DNA from: Dokdonia sp.
Lineage (GTDB): Bacteria; Bacteroidota; Bacteroidia; Flavobacteriales; Flavobacteriaceae
Assembly: GCA_040118945.1 (NCBI GenBank)
Contig: JBEDTH010000010.1
Span: forward strand, 10,731 to 74,730
DNA length: 64,000 bases
Direction: 5' to 3'
Position 1 is the first letter of the stretch; each line of letters begins with the position of its first letter. Below the pieces are notes generated by a model that was given only the letters and a program-made list of their open reading frames with translations, made no database searches and was not told where the DNA came from. A program made the position numbers and the translations under genes. Below, piece after piece: positions 50,214 to 60,060 of the stretch.

Positions 50214-50876
50214 CTACGAAAGCAAGTTGTGCTCCATAGCAAATAAAATTGCACTTATTCTATTGTTGACACCTAGTTTTTTATACAATTCAGTTCTTCG
50301 GTTGTCTATGGTGCTGGGGCTTAAATTCATGCGTAACGCAATTTCTTTTGAATTTAAATCGGTGCCACAGATATACCTAAGAAATTCTAATTCCGAATCT
50401 TTAAAATACAAGTCTTCTTCTTCTTCTAAAGTGTCGCTGTACGTCATCTCTTTTAATCGCTTAAACGTTTGCTTATCGACACGCTCGCTGTACACATACC
50501 GGCCTTGGGCAGCAGTGGCAATAGCCTTTTCTAGCTTTTGTGGCGCCACATCTTTGAGAAGATATCCTTTGCAGCCATAACGTATCATTTGAGAAATGGT
50601 TTGGTCATCATCTTCCATAGTAATGGCCAACACATTTATTTGAGGCAAATGCTCACTTAACCATTGCATGGTGCCAATGCCATCAAGTCCTGGCATTCTT
50701 ACGTCCAATAAAACGACATCTGGCAAGCTGTTTTGCTTTTTTATGTATTCAATAAAATCTAAGCCATTCTGGGCCACATAGGTGACATAGGTATTTTCAA
50801 ATGATGCGATAAGAGTTTTTAATGCTTTCGCGAAAAGCGTATGATCATCTACCAATATGATGTTGCGGGGGGTCAT
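50214..50876 (-). CDS. LuxR/NarL-family response regulator
   Basis: Receiver domain (ILVDDH, LLDVRMPGLDG) plus a C-terminal LuxR HTH (LSPSTIDNRRTELYKKLGV). Confidence 0.9.
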   Translation of the reverse strand: MTPRNIILVDDHTLFAKALKTLIASFENTYVTYVAQNGLDFIEYIKKQNSLPDVVLLDVRMPGLDGIGTMQWLSEHLPQINVLAITMEDDDQTISQMIRYGCKGYLLKDVAPQKLEKAIATAAQGRYVYSERVDKQTFKRLKEMTYSDTLEEEEDLYFKDSELEFLRYICGTDLNSKEIALRMNLSPSTIDNRRTELYKKLGVNNRISAILFAMEHNLLS

Positions 50877-51663
50877 GGTTGAGAGGATATTTTAAATGGA
50901 TGGTTGTTCCTTGTTCTAATTTGCTGTCAAAGGTAAGCTGGGCATGTATTAAATGGGCACGGTTTTTCATGTTTATCATTCCAGAACCCTTGGCCTTTTG
51001 ATCTGGATTAAAACCAATGCCATCGTCTTTGATATAAATGTTGATCTCTTCGGGTTGATATGCTATTTGAATATCGAGCTCAGAAGCCTGAGCGTGTTTT
51101 ACAACATTGCTACAACACTCCTGAATGATTCTAAAAATGATGATTTTTTCGGTATTGGCTACAGGAAACACTTTACCCTTGGTCGAAAAATTAACCTTGA
51201 CGATACCAGCCTTGTGCAATCGTTTTACCTCTTCCTCTACCGCCTCAAACAATCGCCACTGCGCCATGACCTCCCCATTAATCACTTTAGAAAGCGAACG
51301 TATCTCGGTCAGACTTTGACCTACGGTTTCTCGAGCATCTTGAAATACTTCCTTATGTTGTGGGTCCAATTGATTGAGCCCCATATTAATTTGCATTTTG
51401 GCCACAGATAAAAGCTGACCCACATTATCATGCAATTCCATCCCAATATTCTTAAGGGTTTGTTCCTTAATTTCATGTGCCGATTGGGCAAGGGCTTTTT
51501 GAAATTCCTGTTCGCGTTTTAATTGTGTGAGCAACAGGGTATTCTTTCGCTTTTGAAAGGTGTAGAAAAAAATGACAAAAATACTTACAAGAAAAAGTAT
51601 GACGACTATAAAATAGACGCCTAAGAGAACTTGATGTTTAGAGATTTGTTGAACCAGTAACAT
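50845..51663 (-). CDS. NarX/DegS-type histidine kinase (HisKA_3 + HATPase) with a single TM and no sensor domain
   Basis: H-box ELHDNVGQLL; ATPase N/G boxes (NVVKHA, DDGIGF, GSGMINM); overlaps the RR gene by 32 nt. Confidence 0.85.
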   Translation of the reverse strand: MLLVQQISKHQVLLGVYFIVVILFLVSIFVIFFYTFQKRKNTLLLTQLKREQEFQKALAQSAHEIKEQTLKNIGMELHDNVGQLLSVAKMQINMGLNQLDPQHKEVFQDARETVGQSLTEIRSLSKVINGEVMAQWRLFEAVEEEVKRLHKAGIVKVNFSTKGKVFPVANTEKIIIFRIIQECCSNVVKHAQASELDIQIAYQPEEINIYIKDDGIGFNPDQKAKGSGMINMKNRAHLIHAQLTFDSKLEQGTTIHLKYPLNHDPPQHHIGR

Positions 51664-52358
51664 GTGAGCATTCCAAATATAAACATTCCGTAAAGGAATA
51701 TGTTTAGAAAGGTTAAGATATTGTCGTAATAAACGCCAAGAACAACTTCTTCAAATAGAAGCAAGTCGTACACCAGAAACAAAGGAGTAGCACATAAATA
51801 GTACACCAAACAGGCGATAGACACTATAAACGGAAATGACCTTTTGACCTTTAATATGCTATCTGTAGATAAAATTTCGTAGTAGTAATACGTTATTATT
51901 GCGGTAAGTAACAATACACCTATACCATCTGTAAATTTTGAAAAACTTTTAAAGAAGATGTCGGTTACAAGCAAATTGACCACAGTCGCTATCGCAAAAA
52001 TGCCAATGAATACCCCAAAGCGCTGTTTGGCTTTTTGATTGATGAGTTGCATTCTAAAATAGAATGCTAACATGATATAAGACACCACCGAATATATATT
52101 TAAAAGCCAGTCGGAATACAAAAATCCAGGATAATCACAAAAGAATTGAAAATCGTCTAAATCTTGCAAGTAGATAAAGGCAGAATATTGTCCTACCACT
52201 TCTGTAAAAACTACTACAAACAAAAACAACATAAACAGAAAAAAGTCTCGTCCCAGTACAGAACGATACTTTTTCCATGTTATAAAGGCAATGACAGCGG
52301 CAATAACATCTATTAAGATTGCTTGTGAAAAACCATCAAAATAATGTAGCCATTTCAT
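51621..52358 (-). CDS. Multi-pass (about 7 TM) membrane protein, possible detached sensor module of the kinase
   Basis: Hydrophobic segments throughout; overlaps the kinase ORF by 43 nt in another frame; abuts the upstream small ORF. Confidence 0.6.
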   Translation of the reverse strand: MKWLHYFDGFSQAILIDVIAAVIAFITWKKYRSVLGRDFFLFMLFLFVVVFTEVVGQYSAFIYLQDLDDFQFFCDYPGFLYSDWLLNIYSVVSYIMLAFYFRMQLINQKAKQRFGVFIGIFAIATVVNLLVTDIFFKSFSKFTDGIGVLLLTAIITYYYYEILSTDSILKVKRSFPFIVSIACLVYYLCATPLFLVYDLLLFEEVVLGVYYDNILTFLNIFLYGMFIFGMLTCYWFNKSLNIKFS

Positions 52359-52763
52359 CTATTGACCAGGATTGTATGCTCTTGGCGGTATACGACCAGT
52401 TTGTCTATTGGCTGGTTGAATACTATAATTATTATCTGCCCCTGGGTCTCCACTCATGGTAGGAGCCATCACTAGCGTTGCTTTGGGCTGGCTACCTTGG
52501 TTGTAGGCAGCAAAATAAATTCGAACTCCAGGATCGGATATTCCTTGGGCCGAAGACTCGGCAACCACATAGTCGAGATACGCCTGAAGATCTGCAACAC
52601 TCATATTAAATTCACAGGTATCATCATAGCCCTCGGCGGTTTTGATGTACTGCGCTCTGGTATTGGTCCATTGATCACATAAAGTTTTGCCCTCTTGAGG
52701 GGTAATACAACTGCTTGGTGGATTTGGCATAATAAAATATGTTATTGAGTTAATAAGTTTCAA
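52359..52763 (-). CDS. Small hypothetical protein, first gene of the two-component operon (alternative start 52730)
   Basis: ORF ends exactly where the 7-TM ORF starts. No signal peptide or known motif. The promoter-like box at 52768..52779 favours the Met at 52730. Confidence 0.5.
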   Translation of the reverse strand: MKLINSITYFIMPNPPSSCITPQEGKTLCDQWTNTRAQYIKTAEGYDDTCEFNMSVADLQAYLDYVVAESSAQGISDPGVRIYFAAYNQGSQPKATLVMAPTMSGDPGADNNYSIQPANRQTGRIPPRAYNPGQ

Positions 52764-52806
52764 AATATGAAATTATACTTGTATAACACCCCTCCTGATA
52801 AAAAAA

Positions 52807-52820
52807 GGGGTATTTACCCC
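52807..52820 (-). promoter_or_regulatory. Box A: GGGGTAAATACCCC (minus-strand reading), upstream of the two-component operon
   Basis: Palindromic apart from its 2 central bases; nested in the outer inverted repeat CTGATA...TATCAG (52795..52828). On the minus strand, AGTATAATTTCA lies 27 nt downstream (plus coordinates 52768..52779). Confidence 0.4.
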
Positions 52821-52847
52821 ATTATCAGTGATGTTGGTTTGAAATTA

Positions 52848-52861
52848 GGGGTATATACCCC
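52848..52861 (+). promoter_or_regulatory. Box B: GGGGTATATACCCC upstream of ORF 52907..53209
   Basis: Perfect 14-bp palindrome, followed after exactly 21 nt by AGTAATTTAGCA (52883..52894) and then the ATG at 52907. Confidence 0.4.
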
Positions 52862-52906
52862 TTTTATAGTGATCATATCTCAAGTAATTTAGCAAAAAAA
52901 GAGCCT

Positions 52907-53209
52907 ATGCCTTCCAGAAGAAATCCAGAGAGACTAGATAGCGCAAGACCCAAAGTCATGCCTTCGACACTTGCGTATAGTAAAAATGCTATCGAAAAGA
53001 TTTACGCCAAATGCAGACAAGAAGGTCTGGCCGCTTGGCATGATGGTTTGGAGTATGCCGAGTTTATCAATGCTTTATGGAACACCATGCTCAATAGTCC
53101 AGTATGTGGTGAAGAAGCTGCCAAAATCGAAGAAACCTTAGGCAGAGGTGATACCATACAGATACTTAGTGATATTTTTATTGAAGATCGCAATTCTGAA
53201 TCACGATAA
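52907..53209 (+). CDS. Hypothetical 100-aa protein, divergent from the two-component operon
   Basis: Balanced amino-acid composition; preceded by box B plus a promoter-like box. Its 3' end overlaps pxpC by 9 nt. Confidence 0.45.
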   Translation: MPSRRNPERLDSARPKVMPSTLAYSKNAIEKIYAKCRQEGLAAWHDGLEYAEFINALWNTMLNSPVCGEEAAKIEETLGRGDTIQILSDIFIEDRNSESR

Positions 53210-54061
53210 TAACTCCCAATACACTTTACTGCCAGCCTGCAGTTGCCCCATTAAATTCATACTTTCGGGTGTCAATTGCAAAACCCTAGGATAGCCTCCT
53301 GTGGTCTGACAATCATATAACAAGGCGATCAAACTACCATCTGGAGTACATTGTATCGTACCAGGAATGACTGGGGCTGTATGCATTTCTGGCATTTGAT
53401 GCAGCAGTTTCTGCTCAAATTGTAAAGCCATCCTGTTCCAATGATTAGACACTATGGTAGGCCGCAACAGCGCTTGTCTTTGATCTGAAGACAACCACTC
53501 ATATTCTGGACCTTTATAAACCTTAAGACAAATGGCTTCTGGCCTGTCTGCACTTATATTTGATACTATACTTCTTAATTTGGCTCCCTTTATGGCGCCA
53601 TATTGCGACCTACCTATGGGCAAAAAATCTTTCTTTTCGAGTTTTTCGACGGTCAATGGAGCATACATACTTCTGCTTCCTAGCACCTTTTCTGTCATAA
53701 TGCCACCTGCAACAGCGAGATAAACTCTGCTGTCTTTGTTTACAGCGCCAATATGTAAACGATCTCCCGCTTTCGCGAAAGCTACCGCTGAATGCCTTAC
53801 TGTTTTTCCAGCACAATCGGCAGTAACACCCCCTCCAGTTATTACAAAATGAGTATCCTTTTCAAATGCTACTACAGGCCCTTTAAGCGTGCATTCGATA
53901 ACAGCAGCATCTGGGCGGTTATTTAATAGCCCATTGGCCATAGCCATAGCGCTTCTATCCATCACACCGCTTTGAGGTATACCTAAGTGGGCATATCCAA
54001 AACGACCAGCGTCCTGTACACTAGTCCAAAATCCTGGCTGTATAACGATCAGACCATTCAC
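53201..54061 (-). CDS. pxpC: 5-oxoprolinase subunit C (KipA / allophanate hydrolase subunit 2 family)
   Basis: Family-typical GxQDxGR start (TSVQDAGRFGYAHLGIPQSG) and GGYP motif; last gene of the pxpA-B-C order. Confidence 0.85.
   Translation of the reverse strand: MNGLIVIQPGFWTSVQDAGRFGYAHLGIPQSGVMDRSAMAMANGLLNNRPDAAVIECTLKGPVVAFEKDTHFVITGGGVTADCAGKTVRHSAVAFAKAGDRLHIGAVNKDSRVYLAVAGGIMTEKVLGSRSMYAPLTVEKLEKKDFLPIGRSQYGAIKGAKLRSIVSNISADRPEAICLKVYKGPEYEWLSSDQRQALLRPTIVSNHWNRMALQFEQKLLHQMPEMHTAPVIPGTIQCTPDGSLIALLYDCQTTGGYPRVLQLTPESMNLMGQLQAGSKVYWELLS
53769..53782. repeat. Iterated palindrome GCTTTCGCGAAAGC (perfect 14-mer)
   Basis: Inside minus-strand pxpC, read as AFAKA. Confidence 0.95.
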
Positions 54062-59677: not shown

Positions 59678-59691
59678 GGGGTAAATACCCC
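59678..59691 (+). promoter_or_regulatory. Box C: GGGGTAAATACCCC upstream of sRNA candidate 1
   Basis: The 14-mer is identical to box A as read in its transcription direction. It is followed after exactly 21 nt by AGTATATTTACA (59713..59724). Confidence 0.4.
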
Positions 59692-59729
59692 TTTTAAAAA
59701 TTTGAGATGACCAGTATATTTACAATGTA

Positions 59730-59869
59730 ATAAAACAACAATTGTTTAGGTTAGTTTACAAGGAAAACAAAAGCTTCGTTTGAATTCGTGAGTGTTAGAT
59801 AACGAAGTCAAATTTTCAAGAATTTAGGGGTGAAAGGCATCCCGCGTTATGCGGGGTGTTTTTCTTTTT
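59730..59869 (+). ncRNA. Candidate small RNA 1 (5' end estimated)
   Basis: Plus-strand promoter-like box AGTATATTTACAA at 59713, internal hairpin CTTCGTT...AACGAAG, terminator hairpin 59838..59858 plus a T-run. No ORF. Both flanking genes are on the minus strand. Confidence 0.4.
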
Positions 59870-59956
59870 TACACCCATATCTACCGTAATCATCCGATAG
59901 AAATTCTATATAATGCCTTAGTCTTTACAGAAATAACAAGTATATTTACAACGCCT

Positions 59957-60046
59957 TATTCAAGAGGCTTATGGGCAGCCTTAGGGTTGCTTTCATAAAT
60001 TTAGGGGTGAAAGGCATCCCGCATTATGCGGGATGTTTTTCTTTTT
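59957..60046 (+). ncRNA. Candidate small RNA 2, paralog of candidate 1 (5' end estimated)
   Basis: Identical AGTATATTTACAA box at 59939. Its 49-nt 3' module (59998..60046) is 47/49 identical to 59821..59869, including terminator hairpin 60015..60035 plus a T-run. Confidence 0.4.
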
Positions 60047-60060
60047 ATTCCCTTATCAAA

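Follow-up and report, generated by a model that had tools for sequence, protein, structure and literature searches.

A palindromic box at fixed distances from flavobacterial promoters is a candidate operator of a NarL-type two-component operon and a small RNA in Dokdonia

The 64-kb stretch of a Dokdonia sp. genome analysed here (64,000 nucleotides (nt) of contig JBEDTH010000010.1, hereafter the window) carries three copies of the palindromic box GGGGTANNTACCCC. Two lie in the divergent region between a minus-strand two-component operon and a plus-strand open reading frame (ORF) of 100 amino acids (aa), and the third lies upstream of the first of two tandem small RNA (sRNA) genes. Our results indicate that the boxes are probably operator copies located at fixed distances upstream of promoters, the likeliest binder being the phosphorylated NarL-type response regulator encoded in the operon. 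A preliminary description of the window had interpreted the box as a regulator site positioned relative to the promoter, and this interpretation is supported as far as sequence analysis goes.

All three copies were found at the coordinates given in that description and all are perfect: box 1 (GGGGTATTTACCCC, 52807–52820), the copy nearest the operon promoter; box 2 (GGGGTATATACCCC, 52848–52861), 23 nt upstream of the predicted -7 box of the 100-aa ORF; and box 3 (GGGGTAAATACCCC, 59678–59691), 23 nt upstream of that of the first sRNA. No strand is assigned to any of them; read toward the operon, box 1 is GGGGTAAATACCCC followed by TTTTTTT. No further match to GGGGTANNTACCCC is present in the window when one mismatch is tolerated. 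Dinucleotide-preserving shuffles gave an expectation of 0.06 copies, and three copies were reached in 0 of 100 shuffles, which rules out a chance origin of the boxes. Matches to GGGGN6CCCC with one mismatch are at chance level in the window (11 found, 9.8 expected), and hence only the three perfect copies count. Boxes 1 and 2 do lie within the divergent region, as reported previously, but its length is 176 bp when measured from ATG 52730 and not the 143 bp obtained from TTG 52763. The operon almost certainly starts at the former codon, since all relatives begin MPNPP.

Each box had also been reported to precede a related 12-mer, and the positions and distances were correct in all three cases: AGTAATTTAGCA at 52883–52894, 21 nt after box 2; AGTATATTTACA at 59713–59724, 21 nt after box 3; and AGTATAATTTCA on the minus strand at 52779–52768, 27 nt after box 1. 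The sigma-A -7 consensus of flavobacteria is TAnnTTTG, at -12 to -5 (PMC9723704). As the window derives from a genome of the Flavobacteriaceae (Bacteroidetes), the 12-mers are predicted sigma-A -7 boxes of the TAnnTTTG type. The -7 box of the 100-aa ORF (TAATTTAG, 52885–52892, plus strand) lies within the 12-mer at 52883–52894 and predicts a start site at ∼52897, while the -7 box of the first sRNA copy (TATATTTA, 59715–59722, plus strand) reads TAnnTTTA in all orthologues. Both match TAnnTTTG at 7 of 8 positions, defined and free positions counted together, and at the ORF promoter the L118 relative has the perfect TAATTTTG. For boxes 2 and 3 the TA of the -7 box lies 23 nt beyond the end of the box, the centre of which is at approximately -42 from the predicted start site, and the 4 nt directly after the box fall on the -33 position. 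This position, ∼19 nt upstream of the -7 box and with the consensus TTTG, reads TTTT, TTTC, TTTG or TACT across orthologues. The predicted -33 element of the box 2 and box 3 promoters is therefore a poor one, as would be expected of an activator-dependent promoter, and a box that abuts a poor -33 element and is centred near -42 has the geometry of a class-II-type activator site.

At the operon, the -7-like box TATAATTT (52770–52777, minus strand) lies within the 12-mer, 29 nt from box 1; the TACAAGTATAATTT found at this site is invariant in six close relatives and was also scored as a sigma-70-like -10 element. An alternative -7-like box, TATTTTGA (52760–52767, minus strand), lies exactly 39 nt from box 1 and is kept in L011-13. 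Box 1 would accordingly be centred near -48 or -58, with box 2 a further 41 bp out.

Orthologous intergenic regions were compared in five syntenic loci, which were reached via the membrane protein of the operon and aligned first, with more loci added later; a search with the regulator only gave one close relative, the others being reached through the membrane protein and through an alignment of the kinase. In the ORF promoter of seven lineages the mean pairwise identity is 98% for box 2 and 89% for the -7 box, compared with 38% for the 19-nt spacer, and no indels are seen, so that the 23-nt distance from box to -7 box is found in 7 of 7 lineages. Box 2 is GGGGTATATACCCC in six of them, and in the seventh, L137, it is GGGGTAAATACCCC, which differs in the central pair only (AA for TA). 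The sRNA promoter, compared in five lineages, gives a similar picture, with identities of 93% for the box, 93% for the -7 box and 32% for the spacer. Both the box and its exact spacing to the -7 box are thus conserved across diverged spacers, in agreement with the earlier suggestion that a fixed spacing (23 nt, or 21 nt to the 12-mer) marks a promoter-positioned site. These comparisons indicate that the box is constrained in sequence and not in structure alone, because terminators in the same genomes drift by compensation while the box does not.

The proposed link between the box and the sRNA promoter also holds in sRNA loci that were found independently of the box. These loci (∼28 genuine ones) were fetched by a genome scan for the 3' module of the sRNA, in which the box was not used. 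A perfect GGGG-N6-CCCC is present in 19 first-copy sRNA promoters, in 18 of which it lies exactly 23 nt from TAnnTTTA, and four more first-copy promoters have, at this position, a box with one mismatch or an N7 spacer; in no genome examined does a box precede the second sRNA copy. The centre of the box varies at these promoters (TATTTA, CAAACA, CAATCG or CATTTC). Six boxes of the Dokdonia type are flanked by TACT, TACA or TACC with no A-run, leaving no U-tract on either strand, and these six copies therefore cannot be intrinsic terminators.

The sRNA pair is found ∼7 kb from the operon, between comM and an S15 peptidase gene, and has strong terminators. Copy a (∼145 nt, 59727–59870, plus strand, with a predicted 5' end) terminates in a stem at 59832–59864 followed by a T-run. 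Copy b (∼95 nt, 59953–60047, plus strand) has its own -7 box TATATTTA at 59941–59948 and a terminator at 60009–60041, with no box upstream. The two copies share the 3' module AATTTAGGGGTGAAAGGCATC and the terminator, and the 5' motif TTGTTTAGGTTAGTTTAC is found in copy a only. The pair is kept at the same location in Dokdonia, Leeuwenhoekiella and related metagenome-assembled genomes, where many compensatory substitutions are seen in the terminator stems. In Rfam the sRNAs gave no match at gathering thresholds, with sub-threshold noise only (E ≤ 1).

The distribution of the box in other genomes ties it to the two-component operon. Alignment of the kinase yielded a set of 80 loci (731 kb) from Dokdonia, Gillisia, Salegentibacter, Christiangramia, Aquimarina, Aequorivita and other genera, in which GGGG-N6-CCCC occurs 68 times and the control CCCC-N6-GGGG once; with other spacers the corresponding counts are 25 (N5) and 12 (N7). 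Forty-one of the 68 boxes lie ≤520 nt upstream of a gene resembling p123, the first gene of the operon, a region that accounts for <5% of all the sequence scanned; the remaining boxes, too, mostly fall inside the two-component locus, in the stretch from pxpC to the kinase gene. A co-directional gene follows each box of the set, and its start codon is usually 70–95 nt away; box 1 is the counterpart of the boxes that precede p123-like genes by 70–95 nt in other genera. The next TAnnTTT[A/G/T] is most often 39 nt from the box (13 of 65), with secondary maxima at 28–29 and 23 nt; the modal value equals the distance from box 1 to TATTTTGA. The presence of the box at the operon in dozens of genera bears out the association proposed from the window.

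The family-wide motif differs from the one proposed previously. Three copies of the palindrome GGGGTA-NN-TACCCC are indeed present in the window, but the core conserved in the family is GGGG-N6-CCCC (AAGGGG-AWWWWT-CCCCTT), the inner TA..TA being specific to the lineage of the window. As a family motif the exact GGGGTANNTACCCC was rejected, as it is matched with ≤1 mismatch in only 6 of the 80 kinase-anchored loci, and the motif was redefined as GGGG-N6-CCCC. The position matrix, A.AAGGGG-AWWWWT-CCCCTT.T, describes a nearly symmetric palindrome of ∼22 bp. Its arms AAGGGG and CCCCTT are 6 bp apart and, taken as 5-bp arms, 11 bp apart from centre to centre, a distance that fits a dimer of a helix-turn-helix protein.

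A blind scan for AGGGGTANNTACCCCTTT in one genome per species (185,579 species genomes) gave at least 119 matches. Among the matches listed, those outside the Flavobacteriaceae are either in coding sequence (32) or ordinary A-run/T-run terminators, 9 of which are between convergent genes. The 27 listed matches from Flavobacteriaceae, 22 of which could be classified, include none in coding sequence and none between convergent genes; 13 of the 27 adjoin homologues of the operon or a p123 paralogue and four are at the comM/S15 sRNA locus. Thus, among the matches listed, a scan with the box alone recovered the operon family in Dokdonia, Aquimarina, Ulvibacterium and Kriegella. Two Aquimarina matches (L020:6545 and L031:1222) precede homologous 157-aa genes, whose product has no Pfam match, although the upstream genes differ, which argues that the box follows the downstream gene. 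Other listed boxes precede a 377-aa SPFH (Band_7_1) and GYF_2 protein (L052:4724 and L093:4520) or lie 58 nt before a lone p123 paralogue in Gilvibacter (L022:6472). With a perfect box upstream, the SPFH/GYF, 157-aa and lone p123-paralogue genes are candidate regulon members in other genera.

In Ulvibacterium-type loci (L028:1678-1867, L083 and L104) a conserved ORF for a membrane peptide of ∼37 aa, MEATLDEKLLQKIHYGLIIAVAIIGIILICASIFT.L, comes after the box; it has substitutions at synonymous positions and lies upstream of the p123-like gene. No Rfam or tRNA explanation was found for the conserved block around this box. The position of the peptide after the box recalls the small membrane-protein targets of envelope-stress systems. 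Targets of this kind, together with mscL and the SPFH gene, point to envelope, osmotic or membrane stress as a possible stimulus.

A change of the box together with the regulator is seen in ten Aequorivita-like loci. These have no GGGG box; its 39-nt position is taken by AYAGG-N6-CCTRT, which occurs as tandem pairs with a distance of 22 bp, and their regulator helix reads ..YR[Q/H/N].. in place of ..YR[E/D]... The hairpins of AYAGG/CCTRT are calculated at -3.7 to -6.6 kcal/mol, whereas GGGG boxes give -8.4 to -10.4 and a genuine terminator gives -15.9. Since both arms have changed, hairpin strength has been lost and the regulator has changed along with them, the substitution fits an operator and not an RNA structure, although only one evolutionary event is involved. 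Apart from the NarL-type regulator, the conserved locus encodes no DNA-binding protein. The helix of the regulator, STIDNRRTELY, departs from that of NarL at the contact positions, and its arginines would be compatible with G-rich arms.

Several observations weigh against the operator interpretation, and a number of them would suit short intrinsic terminators or insulator hairpins, which would stop minus-strand read-through (from pxpABC at boxes 1 and 2, from the S15 peptidase gene at box 3) or shield the promoters. Each box of the window can form a G/C stem of 5–7 bp (-8 to -9 kcal/mol) with a T-run downstream; boxes 1 and 2 scored as terminator-like in the scan; boxes 1 and 3 are placed such that they could halt minus-strand read-through from pxpC and the S15 peptidase gene, respectively; and the same 18-mer is an ordinary bidirectional A-run/T-run terminator in Firmicutes and other phyla. 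For about six of the listed Flavobacteriaceae matches, a stop codon lies 20–86 nt before the box. Among orthologues box 1 shows little conservation, its equivalents being GGGGTGTTTACCCC in L133, GGGGGATTTACCCC in L134, GGTGTGTTTACCCC in L011-13, GGGATGTTTATCCC in L118 and GGGGTATTCCCC in L137, where it is shortened by 2 nt, and the change in L118 is a compensatory pair change. The box-to-promoter spacing also varies (23, 28–29 and 39 nt), and the start sites are deduced from the -7 boxes alone. A terminator would further agree with the location of the box 140–190 nt after pxpC, on the same strand, in many genera, and with flanks that are richer in downstream T (5.1 of 8) than in upstream A (3.6 of 8).

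However, the stem sequence of the box is invariant, whereas true terminators of the same genomes co-vary, and the change in box 1 of L011-13 is uncompensated and breaks the stem. One-mismatch variants, which are few, show no bias toward G.U wobble pairs. The six sRNA-promoter boxes described above lack a U-tract on either strand, and the variant hairpins of the Aequorivita type are very weak while their position is still conserved. Nor does a terminator account for the exact 23 or 39 nt to the -7 box despite diverged spacers. When 66 boxes of the kinase-anchored set were classified, 51 had tandem genes on either side, 15 were in divergent regions and none was between convergent genes, which, with the 0 of 22 among the listed Flavobacteriaceae matches, is at odds with a generic stem at convergent 3' ends, as the preliminary description had anticipated. 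Upstream of box 2 there is no co-directional gene, stop codons upstream of the boxes are typically 140–600 nt away, and the motif is absent after other genes in the 731 kb of the same loci. Judged by these comparisons, a terminator role fails as a general explanation of the box family, and we consider it unlikely overall, though less clearly so for the three boxes of the window, which do carry T-runs. The occurrence of the same sequence as a plain terminator in other phyla is a caution that shape alone is misleading.

The remaining points of this kind concern the identity of the binder. The box could be the operator of another transcription factor encoded elsewhere, the two-component operon being merely one of its targets. 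In favour of this, identical boxes adjoin regulators with differing recognition helices (NRRT in the window, GYRD in Ulvibacterium, and GYRE), and boxes are found far from two-component genes, before SPFH/GYF, 157-aa and Na+/H+ antiporter genes. In addition, the operon site is degenerate in five Dokdonia species, although their regulator helix is unchanged and the box is retained at the sRNA promoter; perfect boxes are kept there in two Dokdonia species with such an operon site. The co-variation of arms and helix is, for its part, a single clade-level event. Against another binder stand the clustering of the boxes at the operon, with 41 of 68 upstream of a p123-like gene, and the change of the arms together with the regulator helix in one clade. 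NarL-family systems are, furthermore, generally autoregulated. A factor encoded elsewhere therefore appears rather unlikely to us, and the regulator of the operon is retained as the likeliest binder.

According to the mechanism that we propose, the operator would be bound by a dimeric helix-turn-helix protein, most likely the phosphorylated NarL-type regulator encoded at 50214–50876. The regulator may act as a class-II-like activator at the promoters of sRNA copy a and the 100-aa ORF, activation being suggested by the promoter geometry, and would autoregulate its own operon from a box 29 or 39 nt upstream of the operon -7 box. In its more specific form, which we regard as having about an even chance of being correct, the box would be the operator of a four-gene Flavobacteriaceae module comprising a secreted protein of the p123 family, a membrane protein, a kinase and a regulator, and the sRNA pair would be its most conserved direct target in Dokdonia and Leeuwenhoekiella, activated from a class-II-like position next to the -33 element.

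A dispersed repeat, similar to a repetitive extragenic palindrome or a miniature inverted-repeat transposable element, or the recombinase site of an invertible promoter was also considered, given that the box is palindromic and that a single intergenic region has two copies at a distance of 41 bp. A dispersed repeat is rejected since the window holds only 3 copies in 64 kb, all at promoters, and their flanks are not conserved beyond AA/TT; for an invertible promoter the 27 bp between boxes 1 and 2 are too short and contain no promoter, and the orientation is constant in relatives. Origins of this type are extremely improbable.

A different palindrome is iterated in the window. The 14-bp GCTTTCGCGAAAGC is present in 9 perfect copies (2927, 9853, 25140, 33429, 38439, 39457, 53769, 54449 and 58222) and 4 copies with one mismatch (15701, 20853, 29852 and 45284) in the 64 kb, where 0.01 are expected, and several copies lie inside coding regions (pxpC, pxpB and comM). 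A further 55 copies are found in the fetched loci, nearly all of the Dokdonia, Leeuwenhoekiella or related Flavobacteriaceae type. The element appears to be a highly iterated palindrome specific to the lineage, similar in kind to HIP1 or to uptake sequences.

In the minus-strand operon, p123 is followed by the genes for a 245-aa membrane protein, a HisKA_3 kinase and the NarL-type regulator, in that order, and mscL lies downstream. The p123 gene (52359–52730; 123 aa) starts at ATG 52730, and members of its family in other genera have signal or lipoprotein-type N-termini. The 245-aa protein (51621–52358) is polytopic, has only 6 homologues by word search and is the probable sensing partner of the kinase; a Pfam search gave no match for either p123 or the membrane protein, LiaF's family included. 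The kinase (50845–51663) is short, with one transmembrane segment followed by HisKA_3 and HATPase_c domains, and in NCBIfam it is weakly similar to UhpB, MctS, NarQ and LiaS. In all relatives the sensor seems to have been split off into a separate polytopic protein. The NarL/FixJ-type regulator (50214–50876) consists of a receiver domain, with Asp58 as the predicted phosphate acceptor, and a GerE helix-turn-helix with the recognition helix STIDNRRTELYKKLG; NarL (1a04, E = 1.8e-22) is its nearest solved structure, and ChrA, DevR (3c3w, third) and VraR were also matched. On the minus strand the kinase gene shares 43 nt with the membrane-protein gene (51621–51663) and 32 nt with the regulator gene (50845–50876), which suggests translational coupling of the three genes.

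The 100-aa ORF (52907–53209, plus strand) diverges from the operon. Its protein is conserved, with identities of 96, 82, 80 and 40–53%, and has no match in Pfam or NCBIfam; its occurrence is largely limited to the Dokdonia-like lineage, L177 giving the one match elsewhere, a weak one (32%). At its end it overlaps the 3' end of pxpC (53201–54061, minus strand) convergently by 9 nt; read-through from pxpABC would thus be antisense to the ORF. Synteny of the two-component operon with pxpABC (5-oxoprolinase) extends to many of the Flavobacteriaceae genera sampled. Between pxpC and the kinase gene, the L141-L199 loci of many genera contain 2–3 p123-like paralogues and several boxes each, among them one that precedes the kinase gene by ∼80 nt.

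Operators, regulons and sRNA control have been little charted in the Flavobacteriia, which are major marine polysaccharide degraders and whose -33/-7 promoters are unlike those of Escherichia coli. In the literature we found no account of a flavobacterial LuxR/NarL operator or of a LiaS-like Bacteroidetes system, and no description of the box motif, the operon family or the Dokdonia sRNAs. The analysis yields an AAGGGG-N6-CCCCTT motif, a phasing of 23, 29 or 39 nt, a candidate regulator, an AYAGG/CCTRT variant accompanied by a helix change, and a conserved sRNA pair as the proposed output. If the proposed mechanism is correct, these would constitute a concrete two-component-to-sRNA circuit with a defined activator/promoter geometry in a phylum unlike the sigma-70 paradigm. 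Taken together, they would define a regulon for an uncharacterised but widespread two-component family and offer a way into the contact of an activator with the Bacteroidetes RNA polymerase.

The proposed operator shares features with several known systems. Like the NarL/NarP 7-2-7 sites of E. coli (heptamer TACYYMT), it would be recognised by a regulator with a receiver and a GerE domain, lies upstream of promoters and has C/G-rich half-sites, and box 2 even holds the heptamer TACCCCT and its complement AGGGGTA, 2 bp apart. In the box, however, the heptamers are everted (AGGGGTA-TA-TACCCCT) and do not form TACYYMT-NN-AKRRGTA, the family core GGGG-N6-CCCC has no conserved TA, and the promoters concerned belong to the Bacteroidetes -33/-7 type. 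When the regulator is aligned to 1a04, ..STVKVHVKHML.. of NarL stands opposite ..STIDNRRTELY.., and K188, V189 and K192, the base contacts of NarL, align with D, N and T. Membership in the 7-2-7 class is ruled out by the everted arrangement and the differing contact residues, leaving a resemblance only. The GacA/UvrY systems (RsmY/Z, CsrB/C), in which sRNA genes are the chief direct targets of the regulator, likewise combine a FixJ/NarL-family regulator with a palindromic box upstream of duplicated sRNA genes. The GacA box, TGTAAGN6CTTACA, is unrelated in sequence to that of the window, and it is located far upstream, whereas the window box abuts -33; the sRNAs of the window also lack repeated GGA motifs and an Rfam match.

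Closer in shape is the DosR/DevR box of Mycobacterium, which has a GGGACT-WW-AGTCCC core. It is also a palindrome with G-rich outer arms, an A/T-rich centre and GGG..CCC ∼8 bp apart; DevR, too, belongs to the NarL family, and the common helix of the box family, ..D(N/G)YRE.., resembles its ..KNYVS... The arm sequences and the biology are different, with no hypoxia genes in the window. The architecture of the locus, for its part, recalls LiaFSR/VraTSR, the three-component envelope-stress systems of the Firmicutes. Although the phylum and promoter type differ and the likeness is architectural only, it extends to a short minimal-sensor HisKA_3 kinase, a separate membrane protein upstream and a NarL-type regulator, to mscL downstream in the window and a box-bearing SPFH gene in other genera, and, as proposed for the window, to an inverted repeat that precedes an autoregulated operon, with small membrane or secreted proteins as the first targets.

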